A program made the translations under genes and the position numbers. The notes under the pieces were generated by a model. That model did not search any database, was not told where the DNA came from, and saw nothing but the letters and a program-made list of their open reading frames with translations. From Macrostomum lignano (Eukaryota), in assembly GCA_002269645.1 (NCBI GenBank), contig NIVC01001319.1:186001-250000 (forward strand): a stretch of DNA of 64,000 nucleotides. The letters run 5' to 3'. Below are positions 5,331 through 43,300 of this stretch, piece after piece (the stretch's first letter is position 1; the number at the start of each line of letters is the position of its first letter).

Positions 5331-5338
5331 TTGTTGGG

Positions 5339-5537: not shown

Positions 5538-5620
5538 AGGTCCTGATTTATTGACAATGCTTATTGGTTTTGTTCAGTTTTCTATAACGCTCTTAAATAC
5601 TGCTTGCTGCATAGTTCTCA

Positions 5621-5647
5621 AGTGGTGACTCAAAACAAGTCACCACT
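5621..5647. other. Perfect 10-bp hairpin, candidate Helitron/Helentron terminal palindrome
   Basis: agtggtgact-caaaaca-agtcaccact, about 80 bp past the stop of the minus-strand helicase remnant. Confidence 0.5.
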
Positions 5648-5726
5648 GCGGCGCAAAAAAAGAAACGGAAAATTGTTAAGAATAAAAATGTGAACATCAC
5701 AGTTCTGAAAAGCAATAGCTGGCCGT

Positions 5727-7490: not shown

Positions 7491-7899
7491 ATGGTTCGAC
7501 GCAGTGCCAGCAGTTTAAAGAAGAGTCGCGATGCCAAGCGACGGCGACAGGCTGAATCGGAGGCTGATTGCGAGGCCCGTTTGGATGGACAACGTCGGCG
7601 ACTCACTGAGCACCGAGCCTCTCAAAGTGAGGATGAGCGATCTGCCCGACTGGGAGAACAACGGCAGCGGAATGCTCAGCGCAAAGACGCCGAGACCGAG
7701 GCTGAGCGAGCTGCCCGACTAGGAGAACAGCGGCAGCGGGATGCTCAGCGCAGAGACGCCGAGACCGAGGCTGAGCGATCTGCCCGACTGGGAGAACAGC
7801 GGCAGCGGGATGCTCAGCGCAGAGACGCCGAGACCGAGGCTGAGCGATCTGCCCGACTGGAAGCCGAGCAGACAGTCGCCGTGGAGCTTCGGTTTGCAG
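7491..7899 (+). pseudogene. STPR-like charged repeat exon (ETEAERSARLGEQRQRDAQRRDA)n
   Basis: 69-bp (23-aa) tandem repeats typical of Helitron N-termini; ends at a cag|gtgagt donor. Confidence 0.7.
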
Positions 7900-8491
7900 G
7901 TGAGTTTTACAGTATTACATAACTTGTTTTTCGTTTCTCTTAATCTCTCTTTGGTTAGGGTTAGTTATCTGGCACCTACGGACAAACCATTTTATTATAT
8001 GGATGGATCTTAGAGATTTAGTATAGTTGGATATTGCATAGAAATGTGTTACTAAGAATCTGCATTTGCAAGAAACATTTCTAGGAATTTTTAATTGTGA
8101 GAAAGGTTTTCTAAGGATCTGTATTTGTAAGAGAGCATTTGAAGTAATCTGTATATTAAGAGAGCATTTTTAGTAATCTGTATATTGGATAGAAGTGTGT
8201 TTCTAAGAATCTGTGTTTGTATGAATTGTGTTTTTAATAATCTGCCTTTCTAAGAAACTTTTATAAGAATTTTAATTGTAAGAAAGGTTTTCTACGAATC
8301 TGTATTTGTAAGAGAGAATTTGTACTAATCTGTATATTGCATAGGAGTGTTTTCTAAGGATCTGTATTTCTATGAATCTGCATTTGCAAGAAACGTTTCT
8401 AAGAATCTGTGATTGTGGAAATGTGTTTTTCAGAGTTTTTATATGTGATAATAAGCTTTTCAGGGTCTAAAGTATAACTTCAATCTTTCAG

Positions 8492-8810
8492 GTTTGGTAG
8501 TGGTGAGTTGGCCACACCAGCTGTGGTTCCATTCAGTACGCTAAGTGTTGTTAGCATTCCGGGTGATGGGAATTGCTTTTTTCATGCAGTATGTGACCAG
8601 TTGCAGGGCACTCCGCTTGAGACCAATGCAGCGTCTTTAAGGAATGAACTGACATGCCGTGCGGTGCAGGTAATGCCAGAATTGATTGACGAAGGTTTTG
8701 TTTTACCGGAAAATGCTGATTCCATTATTAATGACTCTTTTTCTGAGGGCACCCATGTTCCTGATGAAGTCGTTACGAATATTCGCAGTAACTTGCGAAT
8801 AATTAAATAA
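8492..8810 (+). pseudogene. Truncated OTU-domain exon
   Basis: IPGDGNCFFHAVCDQL; paralogous to the OTU at about 4560; C-terminal His motif is missing. Confidence 0.75.
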
Positions 8811-8864
8811 GTAAATATGTGAATATTTCCTCTGCTGTATGATACCCAAATTTGTCCATGTCAG

Positions 8865-10183
8865 GTTCAAGATACCAATTCGGGTATTACGCTCAAACAA
8901 GGACGTGTGCGCTGTTGGAGTGCAGTCCAAACAGGCTGCTGTATTTCGCACACCGCGTCTAATTGTGTGGGACGAGATTTCTATGACAAACCGGAAGGAT
9001 TTGGAGGCGGTCGACCGGTGCTTAGGAGATGTGCGGAAGCAGGACTCGTAATTTTGCGGACTGGTGTTTGTGTGCGCTGGTGACTTCCGGCAGCTCCTAC
9101 CCGTTGTGGTGCATGGGACTCGTGCGAACAGCGTCATGGCGTGTGTGAGCCGATCCTCACTGTGGAAATACTCCAACGGCGTCGCCTGACGAGAAACATT
9201 CGGATGCTGAGCAGTTCCGATCCTGTAGCGTATCAGATGTACACCGAGCTACTCAAGCAGGTAAGTCTGATTTCATCAGTTTATTATATGATTGGCAATG
9301 AGACACTAGGCGCGAATTTGTTTTTGAGCTCAATTTTTTAAGTTTGCGTCATTTAGGAATGCCTGTGCTTAAAAGTGTGTATAAGTTATGAAATATTCGA
9401 CATTTTAACCCTCCACAGATCGGATCCGGAACAATGGAGCAGGATGTGGAGGAGAAAGTGTCTCTGCCAGCCGAGATCGTGATTTCTGCGGAAGGGCCTC
9501 TCACTGACCTGATCAATTTTGTGTACCCATCGTCTGAAGAACCAGTGGAGAGAGACAGCTACTTTGCAAGCCAAGCGATCCTGGCGCCTTACAATGACTC
9601 AGTGAATGCCATCAATGAGACGTGTCTGGGCATGTTCCCCGGAAGCCTGCGGGAGTACCGCTCAATAGACAGTGTGGCCGATGAGGATTCCGCTACGCAC
9701 TTCCCGCCTGAGTTGCTGAACCAGCTGGATGCCCCGAACTTTCCGATTCACTTGTTGAGGCTGAAAGTGGGTATGCCAGTAGTGTTTCTGAGGAACATCA
9801 ACCCGCCACGGTTGGGCAATGGTACGCGGCTCATTATACTCGCGATGGGCGAGAACGTGATTCGGTGCAAGATTGCCGCTGGCCAGTTCACGGGAGACGA
9901 GATTCTTCTGCCGCGAATCCCGCTGATTCCTAGCAATGCGGACCTGCCAGTCAGTTTTAAACGATTACAAATCCCTGTGAAGCCGAGTGTCTGCCTGACG
10001 ATTCACAAGTCCCAGGGACAGTTTCTGGACACAGTTGGCGTGGACCTCGCTGTCGGTTGCTTTACTCATGGCCAGCTGTATACGGCTCTGTCGCGAGCGA
10101 GGAACGCTGCTAATGTCCGTGTTCGTACTTCTGGAACCAAGACGAGAAACGTGGTGTACCCAGAGGTGCTCACTGGAGACTAA
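8865..10183 (+). pseudogene. PIF1 helicase C-terminal half, two exons (intron 9261-9418)
   Basis: WDEISM, GDFRQLLPVV, HKSQGQ and GQLYTALSRAR; nonsense codon at 9049-9051 and a frameshift near 9170; cag|gtaagt and ccacag|atc splice sites are in phase 0. Confidence 0.88.
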
Positions 10184-16329: not shown

Positions 16330-18650
16330 TAAGAGAGAATTTATGAGATGTCAAGTCTTGGTGGGAACTGCTCAGATGCTAAGGCTTAAGAAAGAATTGC
16401 TTATATGTCAAGTCTTGAGGGGGAAAATTGTTGAGATTTCAAGACTTAGTGGGAGAATTGCTGAGATATCAAGGCTTAAGAGGGAATTGCTGAGATTTCA
16501 AGGCTTAAGAGGGAGTTGCTGAGATGTCAAGGCTTGGAGGGGAAATTGCTAAGAGTTCAAGGTTTATGAGAGAACTAACAACCAATTCCCCCTTTAAGGA
16601 AAGAAAAACACGCTTTTAGTTTATTTGGAAATTAAAAAGTATTAAACGCCTCAAATACAACACACTATGTTCTTGCCTAGATAAATTAAATTTCATGTCT
16701 ATCGTAAGAAGCTTCGAGCGTTTAGGTAGTTTATTCAATAATTTTTTTTGAAATTTGAAATTAGAAAAGAATTCTTGCACTAGATAATAAAGTAATTATG
16801 GTACTAGTTGATGAAATTGTTTCACTATCTTGCTTGGGGTACTTTCTATCAGGGGATGCTTGCTATCGGAAGGACGCTTGCTCTTGGGGGATGCTCAGGA
16901 GAGATTGCTGAGATGTCAAGTCTTGGGGATTATCAATAATTGCTGACCCGTTGGATTTTGATTTTCTAAAGTAGGCATAAAAGGTGAAGAGTTTTGCACC
17001 TTCTGCCTCACTTTCGCCTCTTTTAAGCCTATTTTGTTTCACTTGTGCAATGCATGTTCACCTGAGTGCCTCTGCAGGGTCAAAAGGTGAATTTAAAGCA
17101 GGCATAGGTGTCATAGGGGAATTAGGTGCATTAAAGGTGCACAGTGTGCATTGGAGGCACAAAAGGTGAACAAAGTAGGAATTGGGGGTATTGGTGGAGT
17201 GAAAAGTGAACAAAAGGTGCGCCGCGGTGAAGGTGCCTACCTAGTGCCTGACCCCTTCACCGATTTTACACCTTTCATGCCTCTATTCAAAAATATTGGT
17301 GACATCTAGGCATAAAAGGTGCACTCAGGTGCATTTCTAAAACATGAACGAAATAGGCCACCAACGTGCCTCTTTTGTGCACCTCTCTCACCTTTTATGC
17401 CTACACAGGTGCATAAATTTTCCAACGGGTGAGATTTCAAGGCTTCAGATTGAATTGCTAAGATGTCAAGACTTACTGGGGGAATCGCTAAGATGTCAAG
17501 GCTTAAGAGGGAATTTTTGAAAAAAGTGAAAGCTTTTGGGGAATTTCTGAGATGTCTAGGCTTAGGGGGAATCGCTGAGATTTCAAGGCCTAAGAGGGAA
17601 TTTCTGAAATGTCAAGGCTTTTGGGGAATTCCTGAGATGTCAAGGCTTAAGAGGGAATTGCAGAGATGTCATGAAATATCAAGGCTCAAGAGGGAATTGC
17701 TGAGATGTCAAGGCTCAAGAGGGAATTGCTGAGATGTCAAGGCTCAAGAGGGAATTGCTGAGATGTCAAGGCTCAAGAGGGAATTGCTGAGATGTCAAGG
17801 CTCAAGAGGGAATTGCTAAGATGTCAAGGCTTAAGAGGGAATTTTTGAAAAAAGTGAAAGCTTTTGGGGAATTTCTGAGATGTCTAGGCTTAGGGGGAAT
17901 CACTGAGATTTCAAGGCCTAAGAGGGAATTTCTGAAATGTCAAGGCTTTTGGGGAAATCCTGAGATGTCAAGGCTTAAGAGGGAATTGCAGAGATGTCAT
18001 GAAATATCAAGGCTCAAGAGGGAATTGCTGAGATGTCAAGGCTCAAGAGGGAATTGCTGAGATGTCAAGGCTCAAGAGGGAATTGCTGAGATGTCAAGGC
18101 TCAAGAGGGAATTGCTGAGATGTCAAGGCTCAAGAGGGAATTGCTGAGATTTCAAGGCTCAAGAGGGAATTGCTGAGATGTCAAGGCTTAAGAGGGAACT
18201 TCTGAGACGCCAAGTCTTGTGGGGAATTTCTGAGATATCAAGGCTTAAGAGGGAACTTTGCAGATGTCAAGGCTTATGGGGGAATTGCTGAGATGTGTAA
18301 GCTTAGGGGGAATTGCTGAAATTCAAGGCTGAAGAAGGAGCTGCTGAGATGTCAAGGCTTGGGGAGGAATTCCTGAGATTTCAAGTCTTGGGGGATTGCT
18401 GAGATGTGTAGGCTTGGGGGAATTACTGAGAGGTCAAGTCTTGAGGGATTGCTGAGATTTATAGGCTTGGGGAAATGACAGAAATGTCAAGGCTTAAAAG
18501 GTAATTGCTGAGATGTCAAGGGGAGATCATGATTTATTGAGGGAATTGCTGAGATGTCAAGGGGATATCATGATTTATTGAGGGAATTGCTGAGATGTCA
18601 AGTCTTAAGGGAATTGCTGAGATGTCAAGGGTGAGATCATGATTTATTGA
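16330..18650. repeat. ~29-bp satellite, interrupted by a MITE, with a 358-bp higher-order duplication
   Basis: Unit gagatgtcaaggctcaagagggaattgct; the block at 17463-17820 is repeated from 17821. Confidence 0.9.
16947..17429. mobile_element. MITE (CACTA/CMC- or Harbinger-like) inserted in the satellite
   Basis: TIR CCCGTTGGA...TCCAACGGG, subterminal taggcataaaaggtga inverted motif, 3-bp TSD TGA; removing it restores the satellite unit ttgctgagatttcaaggc. Confidence 0.82.
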
Positions 18651-19590: not shown

Positions 19591-19771
19591 TGATGCCGAC
19601 GAGCAGCCGCTGCTTGATGCCGAATGAGCAAAAAATGGGGTGGGTGCTCATTCTGACACCCACCCCACTCCGCTTTGAGGGTATATAAGCCCCCGATTTT
19701 TAAATTCAACGGTAAATCTATTTTTTCTTGAATTCGATTTCACAAGTTTTTCACAAGATTTTGTGTGAACT

Positions 19772-20503
19772 ATGGATATTAGTGAAGGTTACAGAGTGCA
19801 GGTCGAAGAATTCGAAGGCCAGGAATACATTGCGATCAGGAAGTTTTACCGACATGGCAGCACAGCAAGCCTCAAGCCTGGTGTTCCTGGTTTCAACTTG
19901 AATGTGCAGCAGTGGACGAAGCTAAAGGAGTCAAAGCGCTCCCTGGTGAAGTCGGCTCTGAATAACGAGGTCAAGGTCATCAAGCTGGGCTTGGACAAAT
20001 TTGTTCAAGTCAAGGATGGCCTCATCTGGCTGAAGCGGCTGCCTGAGGACTGCTGTGATGAATTTATGAAGCGCAACACCGTGCCGCTGTCTCCGAGGCT
20101 CTGGCAGAAGCTGTGGCAGACTTCGGACTGGATAGACCAGCAGCCATCAGAGCCCTACCAAGGCGCGGGGGCGAAGTACGATCTGAGCTCATCCGAAGAT
20201 GAGAACGAAGACGCCACCGTCATACTGCCAGTCAAAACTGAGGCTGCTGAAGGCGAGGAGAAGGTCGGCTCACCATCGGAGATGACAACCGACATCGAGG
20301 CTGTGACTTCCACACCTTTGGCCAGAGCCGGCACATCGACTGGGAACATCCCGGCGGAGGACACGGACCTGCAGCAGGATCCCGTGTGGTACCGATTCCG
20401 GGCTCATGCCGCTGAGGTGGAGAACAATCGGAAGCGGAAACTGCCATATCCTCTGCGCAGGCAGGAAACAATGAAGGTGTCTAAGCTGCGTTTTGAAGAC
20501 TGA
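19772..20503 (+). CDS. PC4/Sub1-like ssDNA-binding protein with acidic tail
   Basis: VQVEEFEGQEYIAIRKFY...KPGVPGFNLNVQQWTKLK matches the PC4 pattern; TATA-like gtatataag at about 19682; ORF intact. Confidence 0.75.
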   Translation: MDISEGYRVQVEEFEGQEYIAIRKFYRHGSTASLKPGVPGFNLNVQQWTKLKESKRSLVKSALNNEVKVIKLGLDKFVQVKDGLIWLKRLPEDCCDEFMKRNTVPLSPRLWQKLWQTSDWIDQQPSEPYQGAGAKYDLSSSEDENEDATVILPVKTEAAEGEEKVGSPSEMTTDIEAVTSTPLARAGTSTGNIPAEDTDLQQDPVWYRFRAHAAEVENNRKRKLPYPLRRQETMKVSKLRFED

Positions 20504-21015
20504 GCTGGAGGTTGGATAAGACTGATGAGACTCAATGGATAATTCAGTTCTGTTTGATTTTGTCTAATTTTATTCAGCTAAGTAAGGTTTTGACAATTTT
20601 TGTAACCATTTAGTCTTATTTATTCAGGTGTTAACAAAACAAATTTATAAATGCATGCAGTTTATACTTATTTGCACTACTCAATGCTATTATTTCCTGC
20701 AATCTTCTTTTCAAGATAATCAACTGTTCGCAGTCCCCCGAGTTAAAAATATAATAAGTGTACACTTTATGAGTTGAATAAATGTCTAAATGAATAAATA
20801 AAGTAAATTGATGTAACCGCCCTTGTCGCCTGTCCGCTCCGTAGAGAGACGAACGCATGACCAGAGGGGGCAATGACCGTAGGCTGCCTATGACCGGGCA
20901 ATGACCTGACGGACCTCCAGCACCAGAATGTCTCGCCCACATGATTGATAGCTTTGGTAGCGCTTTGTGACCAGAGGGCCAAGGACCCACATGGACCCCA
21001 CCTGTAGCCAAGGTG

Positions 21016-21311
21016 AGTAGTATACGTTTGTACGCTTCTAGACCCAGAGCCCCTAATCAAACAGGCGATTTGAAGGGCTAGAGGGGGGACACGAGGGGGG
21101 ACCAAAAAACACATCTAAACACCCTCAACACAATTAAAACACCCCCAATACCCCCAACACCCCCAACACTACACAATACTACTAACACTACCCAATACTA
21201 CTAACACTTCCAAACAATTCCCTCGCGTCCCCCCATTATTAGCCCTTCAAATCACCCGTTTGATAAGTGACGGATCTAGAAACGTACAAATGTATACTAC
21301 TACTTATAACC
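21016..21311 (+). repeat. Left TIR of the inner element (itself a fold-back)
   Basis: Reverse complement of about 29358-29657; the ~65-bp arms at its two ends are mutually inverted. Confidence 0.9.
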
Positions 21312-22053
21312 CCAGGCTTATTAACCTATCACTTTCATCTACGATCCTAATATAAATTGATTGGACTCTATATTGATTTAAAGGATAATATATTGGGGTT
21401 TGGGGTGCAACAATTATTTTCTCTCCAATTGGAACAGCAAGAAACGGGATTGAATAAATGATTCCACGTTGAACCAAAACTCCATTATCATCTGTTATAT
21501 AACCGCCGTTTGAAAGGTCGGTTGTTATATTAATTGTATTGACTCCACCCTCAATGTTTCCCACCGTATCGCCGGTGCTTGATGTGGTAACTATTCGGGA
21601 ATTAAATCCAAGTATGGTTCTGAGTGAATTTGCAATTGTGAAATCAACCTGATATCCAGATCCTAGTGATAGGGTGAATCTGCCAGATGGTAAATCAACC
21701 CCTATAACAATTGCGCCTGCTACCCAATCACCATTAGCTGTTAATTCTCCTTCTATATAAGCATTCAAGTCAGTATAGCTATAAGCCCCCGGATTAACAC
21801 CAAATGTTGTCCAATTAGCTTCTGAATCTTTAGAATATTTAAATTGATTATTTGTTGCATTAATTAATTGAGGCATGTTAAAAACCGAAAATAGTATCAA
21901 ACCAATTTGATAACTTAGGCTTTGATCGAGTTGTAACGGATCGAGCAATTGAATCCGTTGCTCGCTGCTTGTCATTATAAACTGTAAGGTTGTACTAAAT
22001 TTTGAATTAGTTCGATCTACCAATTGTTTTATAGTGTCTAATTTTGTTGCCAT
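21304..22053 (-). CDS. Minor capsid (penton-like) protein
   Basis: LDPLQLD...YQIGL...PGAYSYTDLN...PIYYPL...IYIRIVDE pattern of Polinton minor capsids; adjacent to the ATPase and MCP; stop codon falls inside the TIR. Confidence 0.72.
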   Translation of the reverse strand: MATKLDTIKQLVDRTNSKFSTTLQFIMTSSEQRIQLLDPLQLDQSLSYQIGLILFSVFNMPQLINATNNQFKYSKDSEANWTTFGVNPGAYSYTDLNAYIEGELTANGDWVAGAIVIGVDLPSGRFTLSLGSGYQVDFTIANSLRTILGFNSRIVTTSSTGDTVGNIEGGVNTINITTDLSNGGYITDDNGVLVQRGIIYSIPFLAVPIGEKIIVAPQTPIYYPLNQYRVQSIYIRIVDESDRLISLGL

Positions 22054-22071
22054 TTTTATAGTGGGAAAGCT

Positions 22072-22833
22072 TTAATCCTCGTCCTCATTATCTTCTTTTA
22101 TAAGATCTTTTAAGATTCGATTTTTTCTTTCTAACCTAGGGTTGATATATATGTGTTTGTATTGACTATCATCCCAAATTTTTTTACACATGCTTTTGAA
22201 TGGTTTTGCATCCAACCCTGGATTAAATCTCGCGTGTATATTTTATAGATCATAGTTATCTAAATCAAACATTACACAACAGCTAGCATTCTTTTTTATA
22301 ATCGATTCTAATTCTCTAAAGGACTGTGTTAGATAAAAAGCCCCAATTCCATCTCCTCTGCCACTAACAAAAATATCCTTTTGCAATTCTTGATCGCCGT
22401 CGTTAATACAATCATCAAAAATAATTAGTGTTTTATCATGTTTTGGAATTTGATCATAGGATAATCGGGTTGATACTCTAACAGTTGGAGAATTGTTGTC
22501 TATATTTTCTGGATCTTCTGCCGTTGTTTTACATAAATCCTCAATGTCTGCTAGATTAAATCGCGGTTCGTCATCATCCTCATATTGCTCATAAGCTCTT
22601 AACATTCTAAACAAGATATCTTTTTTTAATTTGTTTTTTATTCCATGTTTAAGAAATTCATAATATTTTATTCTAGGTTTGTTAGTATATATTAATAAAT
22701 TATTATAGTCTAACATTCCATCGGTTGTTAACAGGTCATAAACAAAGTGTGCTTTTCCTTTACCCGACCCACCAATTACTAAACAAAGAAAAGGATCGTT
22801 TGGAAATATTTTATTATGTTTTGCTTTTACCAT
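22072..22833 (-). pseudogene. A32/FtsK-like packaging ATPase with an internal nonsense codon
   Basis: Walker A-like GGSGKGKA, Walker B LIIFDD, TQS motif; TAA at 22243-22245, then the same frame continues NIHARFNPG...EDED to the stop at 22072. Confidence 0.88.
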
Positions 22834-22884
22834 TTTTAAGGATATAATTTAAATAGGCTCGACGGTCGGAGACCTGCACTCATT

Positions 22885-25014
22885 TTACAATGGCGCGTCC
22901 TGAACAACGGTACCATCTGCTTTAGCAATTGACATATATTCCTCTAGAAACAATACGTGGGCGTCTAGTGCCTGATTACCGTTTTCATTATTCTCTAACA
23001 TAATTCAAACCAACAGCGCCTACGTTTTCTTTCTGTGCGGTTAGATCAAAAACAACCACTGGGTGAATGTTTAGAAACTCTGTGGGTGTGTACTGAGGAA
23101 CAGCATACGCTTCATTTTTGACATAATCCTGATAATATTTTATAAAATCATTAACATTATTATTTGCAAGATTTAGATTAAGGGGGTCTTTAACCGTGAA
23201 GTGATACATTTTGGCTCTAGAAAGCTCCCATCCAGATTGAATGTATTTTAACCAATGAATGCGCTCCAAATAGCAAAAGCTGAGGACACGACCCCAACCT
23301 CAACCAATGAAAAACAGTTATGTACCATCCAATGCGATTAAGACTGAAAAGTACTATTAAAGCTCATGTTAACCAAGCAAGAAGCTGGCCCTTTTTGCTC
23401 GCTCCGCCTCTCCTCGCCCTTGCCTCTCCTTCGCCATTCTCCTAGCTTACCTCGTTTGACTATTTTGATTGACACAGTTAGGGTCTCAACCCAAACACCA
23501 AAACTTATAAGTCGACTTACTAAAGCCAAACCAACACCCAATCCACGTTTCACAATAGACTGAACCTTCGGTTCACCCGAACAACTAGAAACACCTTGTG
23601 ACTTAAATCGAACGAGCTTCTTATTTGGAATTCCACCTTAGACATTATATTTTGTGAGAAAACATCTCGAGATTGTGACCATCAAATACAACGGTCTGTA
23701 AGTTACCATCAAGTGTTTGCATCATCAGGAAAAGTCAGTTGAATCCGCCGCCTCAGTTATTTGGCTCTCACATTGATATTTGAAGTAGAACAAGAGCCAT
23801 AGAAGTGAGAGACCAGAAGAAGAACAATAACCTACATTTTAAAATATTTCAACCGGATAATATTGATCATCAACCTGCAGGCGGATATTCTGGACATTAA
23901 ACTCGTTAATAGCCGAAACCGCGTTGTCAGTTGCGGTGGCCGCCTGTGCTGCTACATCTCCTGATTGAAGCCAATATAAATCCCCGTTTGCTCTTTTACT
24001 CCTTCTATTTGTTATTTTAAACCAAACAAAAATATATCTCACCCGGCGTTTTGATGTCAGTATTTGCCACTGGAATGAATCCTGATTGTTATTAACGGTT
24101 CGCATAAAGTGTCGACGATTTAAATAAAATATTTCTTGATCAACCAATAACTGATCATCGATGTGTTTTAAAAGCGGAGCTGTTACCTCTATAGTTGGTA
24201 CGACTAATTGAATTGAAGCTATGCGAACTGCTATATCGGTTGAAATCGAAGTTCCATAAAGTATCCTAGGCTGATATCCACCAGATATTTGCAACTGTAT
24301 ACCAAATTTTAATCCTTTCCATACACGATTTGGTGAGAAGAACCCAAATAGTGGGAAGATTGAAAAGTCCTGCTCATATGCGGTTGCCGTGGTTAAAACC
24401 GCGACTGGAAATTTATTCTGGCGATCTATAAAACCGGTGTTAATATCTTTTGTGTTAGTCATTGTAGTTACAACTGGAACTATATTGGTATTAAGATAAG
24501 CTATAAGAGCTGCGGTATCTGCGCCAGCTGCGTTTTGTACGTTAGGGAAAACTACTGCTTGTCCATTACCCTTATCCGGCATCCACCCAACACTATCACC
24601 AACTTGTTTTGATAAATAAGTATAATTTAAATGTTTCAAAACTTCATTAATCTCTGCTGGGTTTGTTGATGTCTCAACCTCGGCTCCATTAACTGTTAGT
24701 TGGGCTTGGGAAAAACATTTATAAAACCAATCATTTTCTATAATAATACCAGAACGATCTGCGATATCGCCGGCTGCAAGAGCAGTTCCATCATTTCTAG
24801 TATACAACCATCTAACGCGGAAAAACGCATTTTTCATATCCAATATGCTGTTGGTTGCGCCGATGTCAAATGTTACTGTTCCCGTAGTAAAATTGTTTGA
24901 ATTATCGCTTGTTGGTTGGGTAAAAATTAAATCTCTTTTCCTGACCTCGTTAATATACTGACGATATTTTTTGAAATGAAATTTATCACTCCATATGGTT
25001 TTTGTTTCAGCCAT
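22885..25014 (-). pseudogene. Double jelly-roll major capsid protein, interrupted by a solo LTR and a C-terminal frameshift
   Basis: Removing 23197-23851 plus one TSD joins ...DDQYYPV|KDPLNLN...HPVVVFDLTAQKE; after a frameshift near 23000 it ends ...AHVLFLEEYMSIAKADGTVVQDAPL. Confidence 0.8.
23197..23851 (+). mobile_element. Solo LTR (655 bp) inside the MCP gene
   Basis: TGAAGT...ATTTCA ends, 4-bp TSD ACCG (23193-23196 and 23852-23855), three CCAAT boxes and a TATTAAA. Confidence 0.82.
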
Positions 25015-25048
25015 TTTTTAAAGTTAAAAAAGTTTTTTATGTTAAAAA

Positions 25049-25723
25049 ATGAGTCAATTTATGGATGTTGATGAAGAGTTAGCGATTTATAAAGAGAAGC
25101 AAAAATATTCTGATTTTGTTAGAAACTTACAAAAAAGAAAGTTAGGAATACAGCTAGCTGGTGAGAAATTTGCTGCTCCTTTTGTTAATCCTATTACGGG
25201 GAAAATTAGTGAACTAGAAAAAACAGATAAAGACCTTCTTGAAAAAATTGCTAAGAATACGGAGCCAAAAGAGGATGAAATTTTGGATGAGCCGCCTGCT
25301 TATGATGTTGATCAAGCACTATTGAGAGTTGCAGAGATTAGACGTGCAGAACGGGGTGAAGTTGATGAATATCCGAGAGCTGCACCACAAAGTATTGCTG
25401 TGGTGGATTTAGGTAATGATAATTACCGAATTGGTGGGGTTGATAAAAATCGGAATGAGCTATATAGAGAATTGGGTGGAGCAAATAATATTATTATGAA
25501 CCCTAGGGTAAGATTTAACCCTGAATTATATACTAGGGATGAATTAGTAAGTGCTAAAAATTTTTATGATGAGTTAGGAGTAAGAGCTGCTAAAAATACC
25601 AGCTTGTATAAAAGAATTGTTGATTCTATAAATAACAAACCGGCTGTTGGCGAAGGATTTAAAACTCCGCGAAAACTTGTTTTAGCTGCTGCGAAAGCTG
25701 CTGGACATACAGGAATTAATTAA
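25049..25723 (+). CDS. Hypothetical Maverick-associated protein
   Basis: Intact 224-aa ORF divergent from the MCP across a 34-bp spacer; AAAAAATG start context. Confidence 0.65.
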   Translation: MSQFMDVDEELAIYKEKQKYSDFVRNLQKRKLGIQLAGEKFAAPFVNPITGKISELEKTDKDLLEKIAKNTEPKEDEILDEPPAYDVDQALLRVAEIRRAERGEVDEYPRAAPQSIAVVDLGNDNYRIGGVDKNRNELYRELGGANNIIMNPRVRFNPELYTRDELVSAKNFYDELGVRAAKNTSLYKRIVDSINNKPAVGEGFKTPRKLVLAAAKAAGHTGIN

Positions 25724-25738
25724 ATTTATTTTTTTAAA

Positions 25739-26241
25739 ATGGAAAATACGATAAAAGATTGTCTTTGTAAACCTATTTATGATAAAGTTGGTTCTGACAG
25801 AATACTAAATGAAATATTTCAAGATGAATTAATAATTTCAAATCGTATTAAAACAATTCAGATGCGCCATGGATCTCTTTATGAATTATTAGCTATTAAA
25901 CATTTTGGTTTTGAAAAAGTAAATAAAATTGATTTAATTCATACCGAAAGAAAAATTGCGTTAGAGTTAAAATCTTCTGATAATACAGATAATTCATCAA
26001 GTCGATTTAGAAATATTCAAAAGTTATTAGAATTTAAATATGTTAATCCCGAATTTGATTTATGTTATATTTGCATTAATAATACTACTAAAAACCCGTA
26101 CAAAAGGTATTTGTTAATGGTGTTACTTTGTTAAGTGGGGAATTTGCTTTAAATTTTTTATATGGTGATCAATATTTGGAAATTATTAAACTGATAGAAA
26201 CATGTTTTTTAAACATTAAAAATGAGCCAACTTGTGTTTGA
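25739..26241 (+). pseudogene. PD-(D/E)xK nuclease resembling type II (Eco47II-like) restriction endonucleases, frameshifted near 26100
   Basis: QMRHG...IDLIHTERKIALELKSSDNTDNSSS; the alternative frame continues VQKVFVNGVTLLSGEFALNFLYGD...TCV. Confidence 0.55.
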
Positions 26242-27802
26242 AGGTGGATTGTTGGATGTTCAAAAAGGATTAACAAGCTTACCAAGCGTTTTTACTACTG
26301 GAAAATATACAAATGAATTACACATACCAGGGTATTCGTAAGCAGGTTAACCCGTGGCCTGAGTGAGGAAGGCAATGTCCTTGCTAGTCTGCTAGTCACT
26401 ATTAGTGGCGACACCTTCAAATTGCGTGAAACGCGTCATACAGCTTCAAGTACCACTTTAACTGAGAAATCTTTTGAAGGAACAGAGGTAACTCCTCTTC
26501 CCAAAGGTAACAAGCTTGAAGACATGGTGGCAATGCGCAGCCAAGCTCCTAAGTATTTAATATAAGGAGAAGGTTCAGAGAGCAGACGGAGGTGGGCGGT
26601 AATCATCACCGCTTAAAGTGTGCTCCAGCCTCTTTCGAAAGATTGTGGGGAAACTACCGGGGACAAGATTGGATTTGAGGTTAAATCCGGATGATACTCC
26701 AAAGCCTGATTCAATTCCTATTAATGGCATTGATTGGTTAGCCTATTATCACGACTTAGCATACAGAGATGCTGATAAGAACTCCCCCGAGGAAGCATTA
26801 AGATTAAAACATGAAGCCGATCGAAAAATGATTCAAGGATTAGATAATCTACAGGGCTTATCGGTAAGCCAAAGATTAACTCGGTGGATGGTTAAAAAGA
26901 TCTTGCAGTCTAAAGTTAAATTTGGTTTGGGAATTAATTACAATCAACATGGAAATAGTTGTGTTGATTGTCTGTTATTAAGTGGTGGTGGGTTAAGTTC
27001 TGATGAGGCAAAGGTTCTTCACAAAGAATACCGAAAGCCTAAATTTTATAGAAAAATCATGAACTTCAAAAAGAATGAAATTTGGTATGCTGATTTAATG
27101 TCAATGCCGAACGAAAGAGGATATAAATATATCTTAACCATACTGGATGGTTTTACTCGATACGCGTGGGCTGTTCCTTTAAAATCCAAAAAAGGAGAGG
27201 AGGTTGCTGCTGCTTTTAGAAGCCTTGGAGAAAAAAGTGAAAGCTTGTGTGTTGACGAAGGAAAAGAATTTTACAATCCTCACATGTATAAATTGTATCA
27301 TTTTGAAAAAGGACAAGAAAGGAAAAAGGACGCGAATGGGGAGTATATTAATAAAATTTATTCTATTTATGGAGAAAGTAAAAACGCACTTATTGAAAGA
27401 TTTAATCGAACTTTAGGTAAGAAATTGTGGTTTCAGTTTAGTTTGAATGGAAACCAAAAGTGGGTAAAAATATTGCCAGACGTTGTTAAAGATTATAATA
27501 ATTCATATCATTCGGCTATAAAGATGACTCCTCAACAATCTTATAACAATCCTGAAAATGTTAAGGTTACCTTCGGGGACTTTGAAAAAAATAAAAAGAA
27601 ACCTTTTAAGGTTGGTGATTCTGTTTATATCTATAAATGGAAAGATAAGTTTGAAAAAGGAAGAAAAGGATATTGGAAAATAAGTGAGAAATTTACTATC
27701 AGTAAAGTTTTAAATACAAATCCTACAACCTATATCATTGCTGATAAAGATGGTGAAGAAATATTGCGTTCTTTTTATGAGAACCAGATAATGTTAGTTT
27801 AG
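26222..27802 (+). pseudogene. Parvovirus-type phospholipase A2 (PLA2X) fused in frame to a DDE (rve) integrase
   Basis: ELHIPGYS*AG[309-bp insert]PGTRLDLRL...YHDLAY...KVKFGLG, then WYADL / VDEGKEF / IERFNRTL and a C-terminal FKVGDSV...FYENQI; all in one frame; integrase moiety intact. Confidence 0.85.
26348..26656. other. Unidentified ~309-bp insertion in the PLA2 Ca-binding loop
   Basis: Separates GYSxAG from PGTRL; no TSD or TIR recognised. Confidence 0.6.
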
Positions 27803-28117
27803 TTTTATACTTTTAGTGACTCTAGGGGGTGGTGTATTTTTATCATCTGTTAATAAAGTTTTAAATGGTGTAGAGTATTCTTTATATTTAAATGAGTTAA
27901 TAATTTGTTCAAGTTCAAAATACCATTCATCTCTATAAACTGGCGTTTTGAAATTGAACAAATTATCATTAAGATATTCACTAACTTGAACTTCAATAGA
28001 TTTGGTGTCGTATTTTTCTGGAAATTCTTTTATTAAATCTTTAATTTCATCTGTGGTTAATGGGTATATTTTTACTCCTCGAATTTCTACATGTTTTATT
28101 AAATCCTTTTTTATCAT
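27794..28117 (-). CDS. Small paralog 1 (KIYPL family)
   Basis: EIRGVKIYPLTTDEI ... FKYKEYS. Confidence 0.65.
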   Translation of the reverse strand: MIKKDLIKHVEIRGVKIYPLTTDEIKDLIKEFPEKYDTKSIEVQVSEYLNDNLFNFKTPVYRDEWYFELEQIINSFKYKEYSTPFKTLLTDDKNTPPPRVTKSIKLN

Positions 28118-28128
28118 CTCTTTGATTT

Positions 28129-28512
28129 CTACCGTCTTATTAATAAAAATTTTTTAAGTTTTTCATAATTACCCTTCTCTATGCCATGTTTGTTAATAGT
28201 TTTTAGTGGTGGTAATGAATACTCTTTATATTTAAGATTACGAACATCAGCAAAAATATTCATTGCTGACTTAAATGATCGTAAAGCTAGTTGATAATTA
28301 TTCAAATATGTAACCAAATCAATAACATCATCAGTAATAATAATATTACTAACAAAGCTCAGGTGTCTTTTTTTAGTTTTATATTCTAGTTGGTTAATTT
28401 CAGATGGTTTTAATGGATATATTTTTACTCCTTCTAATAGTACAATTTTTATTAAACCATCATCTATCTTCTGTTTTAGATCTTTTAACCTTTGGCCAAT
28501 TTCTGATTCCAT
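28129..28512 (-). CDS. Small paralog 2 (KIYPL family)
   Basis: LLEGVKIYPLKPSEI ... LKYKEYS; TAAAAATG start. Confidence 0.7.
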   Translation of the reverse strand: MESEIGQRLKDLKQKIDDGLIKIVLLEGVKIYPLKPSEINQLEYKTKKRHLSFVSNIIITDDVIDLVTYLNNYQLALRSFKSAMNIFADVRNLKYKEYSLPPLKTINKHGIEKGNYEKLKKFLLIRR

Positions 28513-28702
28513 TTTTATGGATAAATTTTATATAATTGTTTATTTGAGACAGCAAGGTAATAATTTTTTTATAACATATAAAAACAATATTATCACTATT
28601 ATTGTTACTAATAATTTTTTGACATTTGTTCAACCGTTATCAAACTTAAATTTTCATTAAGTTCATTAATTGGCACATTTCCGATATAGGAATAATTTAC
28701 CT

Positions 28703-28996
28703 TCATTTTTTATATATATTTTTAACAATAAATGTTGTTTCTGTTACAGAGTAATAGTTCATTTTTTTAATATTTTTTTCGCAGTTTAAACATTGTGCTA
28801 AAAGAAGACTTTGCTCCCCCTTATCCCAAATATAATCTAATTCTCCAATTTCAAGCGGATATATCTTTATATCTGGAAAAATATATACTTCATCGATTGT
28901 TTTATCCTTTAATAATTTTTTTATTGAATCGAGTGCATTGAACATTGTTTGGGTTGATTCAGTTATTGAAAAGTAGAGTCTGTTAACTAATTCCAT
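28703..28996 (-). CDS. Small paralog 3 (KIYPL family)
   Basis: IDEVYIFPDIKIYPLEIGEL; TAAAAATG start overlaps the upstream stop. Confidence 0.7.
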   Translation of the reverse strand: MELVNRLYFSITESTQTMFNALDSIKKLLKDKTIDEVYIFPDIKIYPLEIGELDYIWDKGEQSLLLAQCLNCEKNIKKMNYYSVTETTFIVKNIYKK

Positions 28997-28998
28997 TT

Positions 28999-29313
28999 TT
29001 ACATAAAAATTTCACTTTCATTCTCCGAATCGCTAGTTTCATATGAACTATTTGTTGAGTTGGAATCATCTGAACGAACCTCCCAATCATCCGAATTTAA
29101 ATAATCTCCAAGTTGAAATATTAACTCCCCCTCTTGTTCTAAATCATACATCCCATCCAACTCTAGCGGATAAAGTTTTAGTTCTGTTTTGTCATCATAT
29201 TTTAAATAAACTTCATCAATTATTCCATTCAAAATATGCTGTTTTATAATCTCTGAATTTTTAGCAACAGTCTCAAAAGTATCACTAACTGAAAAGGTGT
29301 AAACTCGGTTCAT
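28999..29313 (-). CDS. Small paralog 4 (KIYPL family); likely start is MNRVYTF at 29313
   Basis: IDEVYLKYDDKTELKLYPLELDGM; the longer track ORF begins inside the TIR. Confidence 0.7.
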   Translation of the reverse strand: MNRVYTFSVSDTFETVAKNSEIIKQHILNGIIDEVYLKYDDKTELKLYPLELDGMYDLEQEGELIFQLGDYLNSDDWEVRSDDSNSTNSSYETSDSENESEIFM

Positions 29314-29357
29314 TTTTAGTAACAGAAAAAGACCCTTCGCGCCGCAGGCGCGGCGAC

Positions 29358-29657
29358 GGGTTATATGTAGTAGTAGGCATTTGTACGCTTCTAGATCCGT
29401 CACTTATCAAACGGGTGATTTGAAGGGCTAATAATGGGGGGACGCGAGGGAATTGTTTGGAAGTGTTAGTAGTATTGGGTAGTGTTAGTAGTATTGTGTA
29501 GTGTTGGGGGTGTTGGGGGGTATTGGGGGTGTTTTAATTGTGTTGAGGGTGTTTAGATGTGTTTTTTGGTTCCCCCCTCGTGTCCCCCCCTCTAACCCTT
29601 CAAATCGCCTGTTTGATTAGGGGCTCTGGGTCTAGAAGCGTACAAATGTATACTACT
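29358..29657 (-). repeat. Right TIR of the inner element (itself a fold-back)
   Basis: Reverse complement of 21016-21311. Confidence 0.9.
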
Positions 29658-30589
29658 AAGGTGCAATAGTTGGTCACTCGGTCATAGTATGACCGAGTGG
29701 CTGCCACCACTCTATGTGACCTGGCGCACCTGGATCTTTCTACCAGACCTCTCGAGGCTAGAGCCCCGCCTGGGATGGTTACCAGGAGATTTAGGCTAAC
29801 AGGGGAGACACATGCAGCCGAGTACAGGGACTCTGCTTGGGGCATGATCGGGAACTCTGGGCTCAATCTGGAGGATTTCTCAGCAGGGGATCCTTTGTGG
29901 CTGTGAGCGAGGCTGACTTGCGACTTTGATTACTAAGAGTAGTATGAGGGGAACATGTACTGTCTACAGTTTAGATTGCTCAGGGCGAAGGGACGCGTCA
30001 GCATCGGGTTGCAACCTTCCTACTGCCATTCTGTGCCAAGACTCGCTAATCCCTCTACTGCACGCACACACGGCACCGCAGCACGCACTCACAGGCGGGC
30101 TTTGCATGGGAGAGGCCATTAGCTTACCCAAACTTCCTTATGCTTAGCCACCCCGGGAGAAAGGCTTAGCAAGCCATGAGTGAAATGATGGTGAAAGAGT
30201 GAATAATGATGAGGTTAGTTAATAGTTAATAATTAGGCCCTAAGGCAAATAGTCAGGCAATTAGGCGGCTTCACTATTGAGTAAAATACAGCAAAAGTTA
30301 CGGTATCACAATTGGCTCAGCTCTCTAATTAAGCAATGGCAAATAGGCAAACCCCGGATAAGTAAAGGCGATTGGAGCACAAATTAGTAATAGGAACTTA
30401 CCGGCAGCTGCACAGAGAGAGAGAGCGGCGGAGTGACCGAGGGCGGCTGTAGGCTGCAGTCAGGCAGACAGTGAAGCGGCGATGCGCTGAAGCGACGAGG
30501 CGCTGATGTAGATCAGGCGATGCTGATGATGCTGGGCGGTACCAGACCGCTGGCCGATAGACGAGCTTACTTGGGAGCTAAGGTCAACC

Positions 30590-32119
30590 AACGAGCCAAC
30601 GAGTTCTACCCGAAAATGGACAGCAGTGGATCCCCTGGACCCTGAAAGTTCAGGGTTCCCCAGCGTTGACGAAAGAAATCTGGAAGAGCTTAGCATCGGC
30701 CCATACCACGTTCTTCAGTCAAAACGCTACATCGAAAACGTCAGAGTTCATGAGGTGCTCAGTAGCTACGCTGGAGACTCGTGGCGCGATTTCGAATTGT
30801 TGATTTCTGAACTGCCAAGCCATTTAAAATGCTGGAAGTTTCATCAGCGAGCGCCACCAAAGGGGTGGAGCAGTAAGTTTGGAGAATGGAGGCCATCTTG
30901 GATATATTTAGCCGTTCTTCATTCCCGTCATCGGTCAAAAACTTACCGAGTTGTCCTTCGTATTTGCGAAACTGCAAGTGGTAACCGATTCGGAGTTCGT
31001 GACTCGGGGCTGCTGCGTCTGCATGGCTACTTTTCATCCTTAAAGGCCGGAAGCAGGACAGCAGGGTGTGACAGTCATGTTATGGCTGTGGTTAGAATGC
31101 TAGGCTGTTATGCATATCACCCCGAAAGCTACAACATGTGCGGCAGCAGCTTCCGATTTATTGACAGTGCTTTGCCAAAAGCACTGATTGCCAATCTTTA
31201 CAATGATCAATCTGGTGGTCATCCAGCTCCAAATGCACCTCGCAGAGACAGTGCTGAATCGCAGCAAGATGAACAGAGGCACAGTTTAAATGCTACTGGT
31301 TCATTGAATTCGCCGAAGAAGTTATTTGGGTTGCCAAATAATGGCCTGCAGTGCTACGTAAATGCAGCAGTGCAATTGTTTCTCTGCCTGCATTCTAATG
31401 GATGCATTTTAAAAGAGACTAGCAACGACTAGCATCGAGAGCTGCTTCGTCTTCTGACGGAGATGCAACAGCGGTCTGCAACAGTCACTCCACTGTTAAC
31501 GGCAGTTCGGTTGCAACATCCAGATTCATTTCAAACAAATCAGCACCATTGCGTCAACGAATTTGTTCAAACGCTTCTAATACATCTGGAATTTCTGTCA
31601 TCAGATACTTTCACAGAATTTTCACTCATTCAAACTTGTCGGGATTGCCAGCGCACAAGTGCTGAAGTTCCTGTTGGCACAATCGATAACAGAGTGATTT
31701 GCATTCCTCTCTGTCAATTTGAGCGCTCAATTGTCAGTTTAGACAAAATCTTCTGCGCTTTTGTCGCTCCTCAAGTAGTGAAATGTTCGGACGCCAATTG
31801 CCTGGGCGATTGTAATCGAGAGATCGTAGTAACACCTGGAAAGTTTACCCTGATTTATCTTGATCGTGCTAGTATGGATGGCCACCTAAAGCTTCAAACT
31901 CCTGTAAGCTTTTCTTCAAGGTCAGGGGGTGTTTCTACACTTGGTAAGCCAGTGGCCACAATATCACACCATGGAAACCGACTGAAATCGGGACATTTCA
32001 CAGCAAGCGTACTGAGCTGTGTGTGGACGAATATTGACGACATGAAAGTTACGTCAGACTATAACCCGTTCGTACGTGAGCCTGAGTGCATCGTGCTCGT
32101 TGCACTTTTAAACTCGTAA
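30590..32119 (+). pseudogene. Transposase C-terminal/SWIM-like fragment fused to a ubiquitin-specific protease (USP/C19) domain
   Basis: FPSVDERNLEELSIGPYH...HSRHRSKTY...KAGSRTAGCDSHV resembles ISL2EU/Harbinger-type C-termini; then GLPNNGLQCYVNA (Cys box) and SHHG...SGHF...IDD (His/Asp); the two track ORFs share a frame across one TAG at 31430-31432. Confidence 0.62.
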
Positions 32120-40310: not shown

Positions 40311-43300
40311 AGTCTGCCAATCCCCGCTTCGAAAGCGTTTGTGGGACGTAGTACTCTCATGGTTGTTATTGATGTAACCACGCTCTGGTCGCGGGATAGG
40401 GCAGGGGAACTTTTTCGAAAGTGTCTCCTATCGCCGTTCACCCCCTATACAGAGCTGTTGAGACTCGGCCAGGTCTTCGACCAGGCCTGGAGACTCCCGC
40501 TCTGCTGCACCCCCTGCTGCCTTGGCTCCGTCTCCCCTGCCGCCACACTTGCCTTTCCGGAGCTCCCCCTCCCTCTTTGTACCTCCCCCTCTACCTTATC
40601 TCCCCTGCGCGCCTCCCTATTCTCTATGCACTCTTCCTGTCTCCCCTCTTTTTGCCCCTTTTCGCCCTATTTTCCTGCGCTGTCCTCCCTTTCTCTGCGT
40701 CTACTTACAGTATTTTGTGCACTCACCGTCACCCCATCCCTTCTCAAACTCCCAAACGGTGACGCAGTCGTGTGACCCCTTCTTCCCCTCGATGACTCAT
40801 CCCCCTCTCTTGCGCAACCTTTTCTCACGCCATTGTTCTCCTCCCCAAATTTCTCATGCGACACCCACCTCACCTCCGCTTCTATTGTTCTCGTTTTTGA
40901 TTCTTTTGTTCTCTTTACCCCCACAATTATCACATTTTCTCCGATTTTCTCTTTCTATTGTTCTCATTTTCGCACCTAATTATCACCTTTTCTCCAATGT
41001 TTGCTTTTCTATTGTTCTCGATTCTCCCCAATTATGCCCGATTTCCAATTCCTTTGTTCTCGACCCCAGCCCCATTGTTCTCAGTGTTTGCTTGCGCCAC
41101 ACTTTCTCGACCTCCCGCTGCGCCAATTATCCCCCCCACCCCACCTCCGGATTTCGCAATTCTCCCATTTCTCATGTTGCTATGCTGGTCTCATGCTTCT
41201 CATCATGACTCATTCTGACGTCATTCTGCCGGCAGCTAATCAGAGAGAGGGAGTCATGGAAACGACCTTGGAGCGGCGGCTGGGATGGCTATATAAGGAA
41301 GCGATTTTCGGCATGAGAATCCTCAACTCTTCGTTCCGGTCTCCTCAGACTGTGCGTCTCCTCGTCTTTCTTTGGACTTGCCGTCAGACGTACCTCTGAC
41401 CTATTCGTCTGTAGGACGAACCTCTGCCGGTCCGCGGTCTGATACCGCCCAGTTACCTTAGCTCCCAAGTAAGCTCGTCTATCGGCCAGCGGTCTGGTAC
41501 CGCCCAGCATCATCAGCATCGCCTGATCTACATCAGCGCCTCGTCGCTTCAGCGCATCGCCGCTTCACTGTCTGCCTGACTGCAGCCTACAGCCGCCCTC
41601 GGTCACTCCGCCGCTCTCTCTCTCTGTGCAGCTGCCGGTAAGTTCCTATTACTAATTTGTGCTCCAATCGCCTTTACTTATCCGGGGTTTGCCTATTTGC
41701 CATTGCTTAATTAGAGAGCTGAGCCAATTGTGATACCGTAACTTTTGCTGTATTTTACTCAATAGTGAAGCCGCCTAATTGCCTGACTATTTGCCTTAGG
41801 GCCTAATTATTAACTATTAACTAACCTCATCATTATTCACTCTTTCACCATCATTTCACTCATCAGAAACGTGTCCTTGGGGTTGTGGGTTTCGCGGAGC
41901 TCACTGGGAACTAGTCGATAGTAGAAAATAATCAATGATTTGAAATAGTGTACTCTCCAATCTTCAGTGTACTCTTCTCTTTACCCTCTTCTGATTCCTC
42001 TCTTTCCTTACTCCTCTTCTCTTCTCTCTTCTATACTCCCTCCCCTCTATTCTCTTCTCTCGCCTTTATGCACTCTGCTCTCTCCTTCATCTCTCATCTC
42101 TACTCTCTTCTCACTCTTTTCTACTCTCCTCTGTCATCGATCCTGTCTCATCTCTCCCATCTTCTCTCTCCCTCTTCTCACTTCTACTCTTTCTTCTCCC
42201 TTCTCTCCCCTCCTCTCGCTTCTTACTCCAATATTATCTGCTCACTCCTTATGCTTACCCCATCGTCTCTCTTCTTAACTTCTATCTTTTCTCTTATCCT
42301 CCCCTCGCTTCTTCTCTCTTCTTATAGTCTATTCCTTCTCCTTTTCACTCTCATCTCATTAGCAATGAGCTTGATTCTTTATCTGGCATTTGAGGTTTAA
42401 GTCTGCCAATCCCCGCTTCGAAAGCGTTTGTGGGACGTAGTACTCTCATGGTTGTTATTGATGTAACCACGCTCTGGTCGCGGGATAGGGCAGGGGAACT
42501 TTTTCGAAAGTGTCTCCTATCGCCGTTCACCCCCTATACAGAGCTGTTGAGACTCGGCCAGGTCTTCGACCAGGCCTGGAGACTCCCGCTCTGCTGCACC
42601 CCCTGCTGCCTTGGCTCCGTCTCCCCTGCCGCCACACTTGCCTTTCCGGAGCTCCCCTCCCTCTTTGTACCTCCCCCTCTACCTTATCTCCCCTGCGCGC
42701 CTCCCTATTCTCTATGCACTCTTCCTGTCTCCCCTCTTTTTGCCCCTTTTCGCCCTATTTTCCTGCGCTGTCCTCCCTTTCTCTGCGTCTACTTACAGTA
42801 TTTTGTGCACTCACCGTCACCCCATCCCTTCTCAAACTCCCAAACGGTGACGCAGTCGTGTGACCCCTTCTTCCCCTCGATGACTCATCCCCCTCTCTTG
42901 CGCAACCTTTTCTCACGCCATTGTTCTCCTCCCCAAATTTCTCATGCGACACCCACCTCACCTCCGCTTCTATTGTTCTCGTTTTTGATTCTTTTGTTCT
43001 CTTTACCCCCACAATTATCACATTTTCTCCGATTTTCTCTTTCTATTGTTCTCATTTTCGCACCTAATTATCACCTTTTCTCCAATGTTTGCTTTTCTAT
43101 TGTTCTCGATTCTCCCCAATTATGCCCGATTTCCAATTCCTTTGTTCTCGACCCCAGCCCCATTGTTCTCAGTGTTTGCTTGCGCCACACTTTCTCGACC
43201 TCCCGCTGCGCCAATTATCCCCCCCACCCCACCTCCGGATTTCGCAATTCTCCCATTTCTCATGTTGCTATGCTGGTCTCATGCTTCTCATCATGACTCA

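Follow-up and report, generated by a model that had tools for sequence, protein, structure and literature searches.

What kind of history leaves a Maverick-type element with complete ends and with genes for a capsid, for packaging and for integration, and without a replicase or a protease? The question is raised by a virus-like element at positions 21016-29657 of a 64,000-nucleotide (nt) stretch of Macrostomum lignano DNA (contig NIVC01001319.1, positions 186,001 to 250,000), here called the window, whose features are collected in Table 1. The element spans 8642 nt, or 7987 nt without a 655-nt insert resembling a solo long terminal repeat (LTR). An earlier note on this DNA had concluded that it transposed as this compact unit. 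This does not follow, because a deletion inside an integrated copy keeps both the terminal inverted repeats (TIRs) and the target-site duplication (TSD), so that their integrity is no proof of compact mobility; moreover, the minor capsid (penton) gene breaks off where the left TIR has its inner edge. We favour, with a probability of roughly 0.55, the reading that the element is a left-end deletion derivative which lost its replicase and its protease.

The limits of the element are well defined. The two TIRs are 97% alike, with 6 substitutions and 3 gap columns in 300, and the termini read AGTAGT...ACTACT; such (AGT)2 ends are the commonest end motif among vertebrate Mavericks (PMC8097293). The target was a repeat starting with TGTAAC at 20809, which also occurs uninterrupted on the minus strand at 43543-44670. 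Because this empty copy holds AAGGTG once, the ends and the 6-bp duplication are fixed, which confirms the complete ends described earlier.

Table 1. Features of the Maverick-type element and its target site (positions in the window)
Feature	Position	Strand	Remarks
Left TSD copy, AAGGTG	21010..21015	+	Single copy at the empty paralogous site, 44464-44469
Left TIR	21016..21312		297 nt
Minor capsid (penton)	21304..22053	-	249 aa; stop inside the left TIR
A32/FtsK-like packaging ATPase	22072..22833	-	Premature stop at codon 197 of 254
Double-jelly-roll major capsid protein (MCP) gene	22885..25014	-	Interrupted by the 655-nt insert; frame change near 22990-23004
655-nt solo-LTR-like insertion	23197..23851	+	Limits exact; TG...CA ends, 4-bp duplication, four CCAAT boxes
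224-aa open reading frame (ORF)	25049..25723	+	26-30% identical to a conserved ORF of group-2 Mavericks, by alignment only
Probable PD-(D/E)xK nuclease	25739..26238	+	Pfam RE_Eco47II, E 0.0011, below cut-off; frame change near 26092-26134
PLA2-integrase, exon 1	26222..26347	+	In-frame stop at 26339-26341; matches the N-termini of intronless P0004 and P0007
Predicted group I intron	26348..26656	+	309 nt; P1-P9 with P5 extension; sits in the PLA2 calcium-loop motif
PLA2-integrase, exon 2	26657..27802	+	Parvovirus-type PLA2 domain fused in frame to rve DDE integrase
Four small ORFs	27794-28153, 28129-28512, 28703-28996, 28999-29313	-	Common K[IL]YPL motif; paralogous
Right TIR	29358..29657		300 nt; fold-back structure as in the left TIR
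Right TSD copy, AAGGTG	29658..29663	+	Directly flanks the right TIR

The genes fall into three blocks: the minor capsid, ATPase and MCP genes on the minus strand at the left, the 224-aa ORF, nuclease and PLA2-integrase on the plus strand, and four small paralogues on the minus strand at the right. The earlier calls of MCP, minor capsid, packaging ATPase and integrase all hold. The MCP pieces are 42-49% identical to three intact proteins of 486-501 aa (three relatives among 4178 candidates), and the piece beyond the 655-nt insert matches the same relative protein as does the N-terminal piece. A structure model of one relative, P0001 (49% identical), computed from an 84-row alignment, has a mean predicted local distance difference test score (pLDDT) of 90.3 and best matches the MCPs of Sputnik and mavirus, and also those of iridovirus and PBCV-1 (best E 1.5e-14). 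A profile search returned 219 matches, and of the 30 scanned, taken from the best 150 plus one, 23 match the double-jelly-roll (DJR)-like family PF21738; the three closest relatives show no PF21738 match. A search with the MCP alignment gave no locus in genome contigs (0 of 73 candidates), and phage records contained no match. As modelled on its relatives, the MCP of the element is a double jelly roll. The minor capsid protein matches the pentons of three larger Mavericks (our loci L001, L002 and L004) in tblastn at E 1e-19 to 2e-25, and unnamed and DUF5901-type viral protein clusters of the Atlas at 0.96-0.97; a single-sequence fold model of it reached a pLDDT of only 30.8. The ATPase has Walker A and B motifs and a Pox_A32 match (E 9e-5) just under the cut-off. 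The integrase shows the DDE motifs and matches Pfam rve at E 2e-7 (31.4 bits, cut-off 32.6), and the PLA2-integrase has 1133 relatives; among the 120 listed, many carry both domains in one protein.

Neither a replicase nor a protease accompanies these genes, as the earlier note had stated, and there is no room for one: of the 8045-nt core 354 nt are unassigned, with a longest gap of 190 nt (28513-28702). We searched with 123 ORFs from six related loci, a set that included an adenain-like ORF and a 1300-aa polymerase-like ORF, and these matched the window only at the minor capsid, ATPase, PLA2 and integrase ORFs. Similarly, a six-frame scan gave no DTDS, SLYP or extra Walker A motif, and no polymerase, helicase or convincing HUH motif. 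Thus, among the usual attributes of a Maverick the element has the TIRs with (AGT)2 and 6-bp TSD, the rve integrase, the DJR MCP, the minor capsid and the A32-like ATPase, and lacks a DNA polymerase B primed by protein (pPolB; or the helicase/primase that substitutes for it in group 2), an adenain-like protease and a length of ~13-25 kb. The 224-aa ORF is not a thiol protease, as it contains no cysteine, and three of the four small paralogues likewise have none. At 97-127 aa these paralogues are too small to be polymerases; they could conceivably hold a wholly novel replication role.

The evidence for a deletion comes from the penton gene. The protein is 12-14 residues shorter at its C-terminus than three aligned relatives and is missing the last hydrophobic strand, a terminal stretch that another two loci, of more distant kinship, have also kept. 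The left TIR contains the last two codons of the gene and its stop, and homology ends at the inner edge of that TIR. The TIR-derived frame past the stop (with X at the stop) has no homology to the missing strand: 4091 and 3954 of 5000 random translations, and 4581 of 5000 shuffles, score at least as well. The remaining damage in the element consists of two internal stops, two frame changes and the 655-nt insert, with 3.6 stops expected from the divergence of the TIRs. As this is about what should have accrued since insertion, the retained genes were sound at that time. For this reason the truncated penton is most simply a deletion junction, and a penton crippled by nature would stand out as the exception. 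The cut lies between minor capsid and TIR, where the earlier note would have looked for pPolB and protease in full-length relatives, and it looks like a deletion scar.

The TIRs themselves have an unusual form, which the earlier note had not mentioned. Positions 21016-21301 constitute an imperfect 286-nt palindrome, with a stem of ~83 bp and a C/A-rich loop of 122 nt, in which the inner arm is the terminus reversed; the left TIR folds at -52.6 kcal/mol (z -11.4, 0 of 200 shuffles). The terminal 19-mer accordingly occurs four times, at both outer ends and in both inner arms, and both 3' termini pair into the ~83-bp stem. The 122-nt loop has the same orientation relative to the terminus at both ends, with no flip/flop. 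Since the arms differ by ~20% and the two TIRs by 3%, the palindrome predates the present insertion. Terminal palindromes have been reported in Halocafeteria virophages and one subtype of polinton-like viruses (PLVs), mostly with non-pPolB replicases, and a hairpin-priming model has been proposed for them, the alternative being accidental annealing (10.64898/2026.07.28.741278). Because fold-back ends go with non-pPolB replication in that protist study, the replicase that was lost or borrowed here may not be pPolB. The long fold-back ends are a property of the lineage whether the element was shortened by deletion or is compact by nature, and they predict hairpin-primed intermediates or loop inversion among copies. 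A short GC-rich hairpin is also found at 29334-29356, just inside the right TIR and amid AT-rich DNA; it is a possible origin, promoter or packaging element.

To place the element we built FastTree trees from 82 MCP rows of 400-620 aa, including the window piece and 7 locus proteins, and from 72 integrase rows. P0001-P0003 are the neighbours of the window in the MCP tree (support 100, stem 1.07), as are P0004-P0007 and P0020 in the integrase tree (support 100); both clades stand apart from L001-L004. Such trees had been called for against adintoviruses and PLVs; ours put the window in distinct clades and hold no named references. The assignment to group 2 is based on the Pfam family of the relatives, on similarity to L001-L004 and on the PLA2 domain, a feature of group-2 Mavericks and adintoviruses (PMC8502044; 10.64898/2026.06.19.733378). 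The element is a genuine provirus, now dead, from a group-2 Maverick lineage (Polintoviricetes) that has diverged; it is not a canonical member, as it has neither the pPolB and protease nor the length of one. The nearest relatives are known from contigs of at most 4.9 kb, and genome contigs gave 38 loci of distant relatives. Two of these, L001 and L002, are complete (14.6-15.4 kb, with TIRs) and contain, besides an adenain-like ORF, one of ~1300 aa in which a YxDTDS motif occurs; the 1326-aa ORF of L002 was not confirmed as pPolB by Pfam, PDB or PHROGs, so that the call rests on size, place and one motif. As these two are distant, they do not show the gene content of the nearest kin. L001, L002, L004, L025 and L029 are eukaryotic Maverick-type elements in contigs filed as bacterial genome bins, that is, contamination.

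Under the deletion reading one block would have been lost from the left arm, between the TIR and the last minor-capsid codons, and would have held a maturation protease and a replicase, either pPolB or, given the fold-back ends, one of helicase/primase type. Either the deletion would have taken place after integration, favoured by the adjoining hairpin, or the block would have been lost as the virus replicated, its left end being repaired from the right one, and the integrase would then have inserted a defective genome. In the intact virus the 3' ends, by folding back, could have provided a primer or an origin regenerated locally; the PLA2-integrase fusion would have undergone packaging and cleavage by an adenain-type protease; and the intron described below would splice itself out and spread by homing, perhaps aided by the adjoining nuclease. 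The deletion reading is supported also by the protease-like and polymerase-like ORFs of the two complete relatives, by the common Maverick (AGT)2 termini and by insect polintons that lack polB and occur beside complete ones (10.1101/2025.02.07.637071). Fragmented elements with TIRs and TSDs are known in Halocafeteria, and mobile replication modules have been reported near genome ends (10.64898/2026.10.13.758929); the accessible parts of 10.1101/2023.08.22.554363 and 10.1101/2023.10.06.561300 contain nothing on replicase-less forms. If the element is indeed a deletion product, it serves as a warning that TIRs and a TSD do not prove movement in the present form. Several observations weigh against a deletion. 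There is a single copy only, and no remnant of a replicase or protease was found in the window. The two TIRs differ at the position of the minor-capsid stop, which may hence be specific to this copy. The 224-aa ORF is ~30 residues shorter at its C-terminus with no junction nearby, which hints at streamlining of the lineage. Finally, the distance from the complete relatives is considerable: the MCP clade has the long stem noted above, L001 and L002 are 37-38% identical to the element in the integrase, have their MCPs on another branch and differ in gene order, and their TIRs contain internal hairpins only and no fold-back, so that the ends of the lineage already differ.

Some of these points would be expected if the element belonged to a natural ~8-kb satellite lineage with its own capsid, packaging and integration functions, which depended for its replicase and protease on a complete Maverick resident alongside it, or on a large DNA virus, with the (AGT)2 ends as origin and the fold-back TIRs regenerating it. 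Complete ends with a TSD, the dense packing (all but 354 of 8045 nt used), genes intact at insertion, the distinct MCP and integrase clades with full local support, and two genes, penton and 224-aa ORF, shorter than in relatives all agree with such a lineage. Further, PLVs of 15-20 kb without a replicase exist in the VC40 group (10.64898/2026.06.19.733378), PLVs ride with entomopoxviruses (PMC11296320), and a group I intron, needing no spliceosome, would suit a cytoplasmic factory. We nonetheless regard a satellite as unlikely, given that its penton would have no last strand precisely at the TIR edge, that the window has no second copy or helper gene, and that the supposed large-virus promoter motif is present in the ordinary relatives L002 and L004 too. 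The wider proposition is a lineage of ~8-kb integrating DJR viruses, the smallest Maverick-type genomes, encoding capsid, packaging and integrase only, replicating from fold-back ends with enzymes borrowed from helper or host and carrying, within the PLA2-integrase gene, a mobile group I ribozyme to which the nuclease beside it would be a free-standing homing partner, the host probably being an animal; we entertain it tentatively, and with the same reserve its description as the mirror image of a transpoviron. Were the compact form natural, it would be a helper-dependent Maverick, and would bear on Maverick replication and on the ties of these elements to large DNA viruses.

The fold-back ends permit another view, namely a replicase-free virus copied by host polymerases, in which the excised 3' ends would prime synthesis in the manner of parvoviruses and hairpins would be resolved by the integrase or by the PD-(D/E)xK nuclease. 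The pairing of both 3' termini into the stem, and the association of terminal palindromes with non-pPolB replication and the hairpin priming proposed for them (10.64898/2026.07.28.741278), speak in its favour, but the palindromic elements concerned still encode their own non-pPolB replicases (same source). Since the element encodes neither a helicase nor an HUH nickase, the match behind the nuclease call is under the cut-off, the loops show no flip/flop, and the missing protease and cut penton would be left unexplained, we hold it to be improbable. We give equally little credit to an assembly artefact, or to recombination between two copies, as the source of the short form, although the flanks do behave unevenly: compared with the empty paralog, the interrupted repeat differs at 9 of 207 sites on the left (20809-21015) and at 1 of 927 on the right (29658-30584; p 1.6e-6), and there are exact duplications within 39.8-44.5 kb. 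However, the TIRs, being 3% different, do not represent a single sequence that was collapsed, the TSD is coherent, and the asymmetry would be explained by a recent conversion or duplication ending at the insertion; it may reflect conversion, duplication or an assembly effect.

The 309-nt insert, which the earlier note had counted among the inactivating insertions, is predicted to be a self-splicing group I intron. Inactivation by the stops and by the exact 655-nt insert stands, and the intron, being common to relatives, drops out of that list; the natural length accordingly becomes ~8.0 kb in place of the ~7.7 kb given before. In a 401-nt search the insert matches the full Rfam model RF00028 (1-253) at E 1.5e-11 with 48.7 bits (curated cut-off 50), and a search over 9.1 kb did not report it. 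Reading frame and structure agree on the boundaries. P1 is formed by 26343-26347 with 26357-26361 (5 of 5 pairs, U.G at the 5' splice site); the P3-P7 pseudoknot core has the G-C guanosine-binding pair, with P7 paired 6 of 6, a bulged A and changes on both sides relative to the Rfam consensus; and P2, P2.1, P4, P5, P5a, P6, P6a, P8, P9 and P9.0 are fully paired, all helices having been chosen by eye from the Rfam alignment. The last nucleotide, 26656 by P9.0 and frame, is not the terminal G of a 3' splice site, which may be a natural variant or decay. An intron-core scanner has its sole match in the window at 26574/26616, a weak sign by itself as 232 of 2000 shuffles also match, and the minimum-energy fold of the whole insert is unremarkable (z -0.45).

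Comparison with relatives, for which intron presence was judged from protein sequences only, places this intron in the history of the lineage. P0005 and P0020 (58-61% identical, 2 of the 120 listed relatives) have a predicted N-terminus that is the translated 3' end of the same intron, P0004 and P0007 are continuous across the site, and P0006 starts downstream of it. Being common to two relatives and absent from two, the insert is inherited and not damage, and it is a property of the lineage under either a deletion or a compact origin. In the tree P0004, which has no intron, is the partner of the window, and the likewise intronless P0007 is that of P0005/P0020; hence the intron was gained or lost at least twice, a pattern that would fit homing. 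The upstream nuclease could be its free-standing homing partner, comparable to the 'collaborative homing' that has been described (PMC11296320). At curated scores Rfam has no match in 8 of the 38 related loci, a threshold below which the window intron itself falls, so introns there are possible. An intron present or absent among close relatives, which is a short ribozyme, and long fold-back TIRs have not been reported for animal Maverick-type elements in the literature that we searched, which covered few subscription papers. The PLA2-integrase linker contains a GxG motif kept in 5 of 6 clade members, which resembles an adenain cleavage site and counts in favour of the deletion reading. The PLA2 and integrase frames of five related Mavericks differ and overlap (L001:9137-9200, L002:8792-8855, L003:2088-2127, L004:10248-10300, L005:1359-1392), four of the five with a -1 offset and an in-register A-run slippery heptamer and the fifth with a +1 offset; this looks like a programmed frameshift giving the fusion that is encoded in one frame in the window lineage.

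Among known systems the closest are the group-2 Maverick-Polintons and the Mayetiola-class (Alpha) adintoviruses, which share the DJR MCP (relatives of ours match PF21738), the penton and A32 ATPase, the parvovirus-type PLA2, rve integrase, (AGT)2 ends and 6-bp TSD. The element differs from group-2 Mavericks in having no pPolB, helicase or protease, in its fold-back TIRs, group I intron and four paralogues, in an MCP less than 30% identical to all but a handful of proteins, and in its length of 8.0 kb against 12.7-24.6 kb in intact vertebrate Mavericks (PMC8097293). Polintons of Pieris mannii and other insects are likewise flanked by TIRs and devoid of polB, appear to be still mobile and occur beside complete ones; as described, however, they carry LINE/LTR cargo and have complete near-identical sisters, whereas ours is one short copy in the window (10.1101/2025.02.07.637071). 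Halocafeteria virophages and PLV subtype 4 have palindromes in the TIRs beside the TSD and an rve integrase, but their palindromes are of 52 nt (in the subtype drawn) compared to our 286-nt stem-loop, and they have their own non-pPolB replicases, a protist host and other capsid classes (10.64898/2026.07.28.741278). Cryptophyte and Paulinella PLVs, also small integrating DNA viruses, contain group I introns of 309-376 bp without their own endonuclease, located in a short gene upstream of the MCP and not, as here, in the PLA2 active-site loop of a PLA2-integrase gene (PMC12220804). The VC40 Zephyrvirus PLVs are described as without a detectable replication gene, and differ in their 15-20 kb length, NCLDV (nucleocytoplasmic large DNA virus)/yaravirus-like capsid and methyltransferase and Tlr6FP genes (10.64898/2026.06.19.733378).

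The 224-aa ORF found no tblastn match among the related loci. The paralogy of the small ORFs is clear for two pairs (0 of 1000 shuffles) and weaker across pairs; they have no relative in Pfam, NCBIfam (a weak Alba-like match, E 0.011, only), PHROGs, PADLOC, PDB, the Atlas or the protein collection. In and next to the 190-nt gap (28513-28762) short minus-strand ORFs begin at 28762 and 28706 with the same start context, which suggests a fifth, degraded small gene. Poxvirus-like late promoters were considered, since 9 of 10 genes start with TAAAA(A)TG (13 sites against a shuffle mean of 5.4, maximum 12 in 500), and rejected as not distinctive, since L002 and L004 each have the motif at 5 of 12 starts and are A-rich at the rest. 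The 655-nt insert was rejected as an intron, with no group I core motif and no Rfam match of note; its ends point to a solo LTR and thus to host-derived damage, and the window holds no second copy of it.

The surrounding DNA is eukaryotic and rich in repeats; it contains satellites and ORFs that resemble those of Gypsy elements, Helitrons and transposases. A PC4-domain ORF (E 7e-9) and a transposase-like ORF with a UCH deubiquitinase domain (E 4e-6) after it flank the target repeat, at 19769-20503 and 30530-32119, and probably represent one older DNA transposon split by nested insertions. Positions 30176-30584 are identical to 41455-41863. Further left, at 880-3648 and 4506-10183, motifs suggest gag-pol ORFs of Gypsy type, an OTU-like ORF and part of a PIF1-like helicase that probably belongs to a Helitron. 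Large tandem arrays with units of 23 bp and 29 bp occupy 52750-64000 and 17450-18160.

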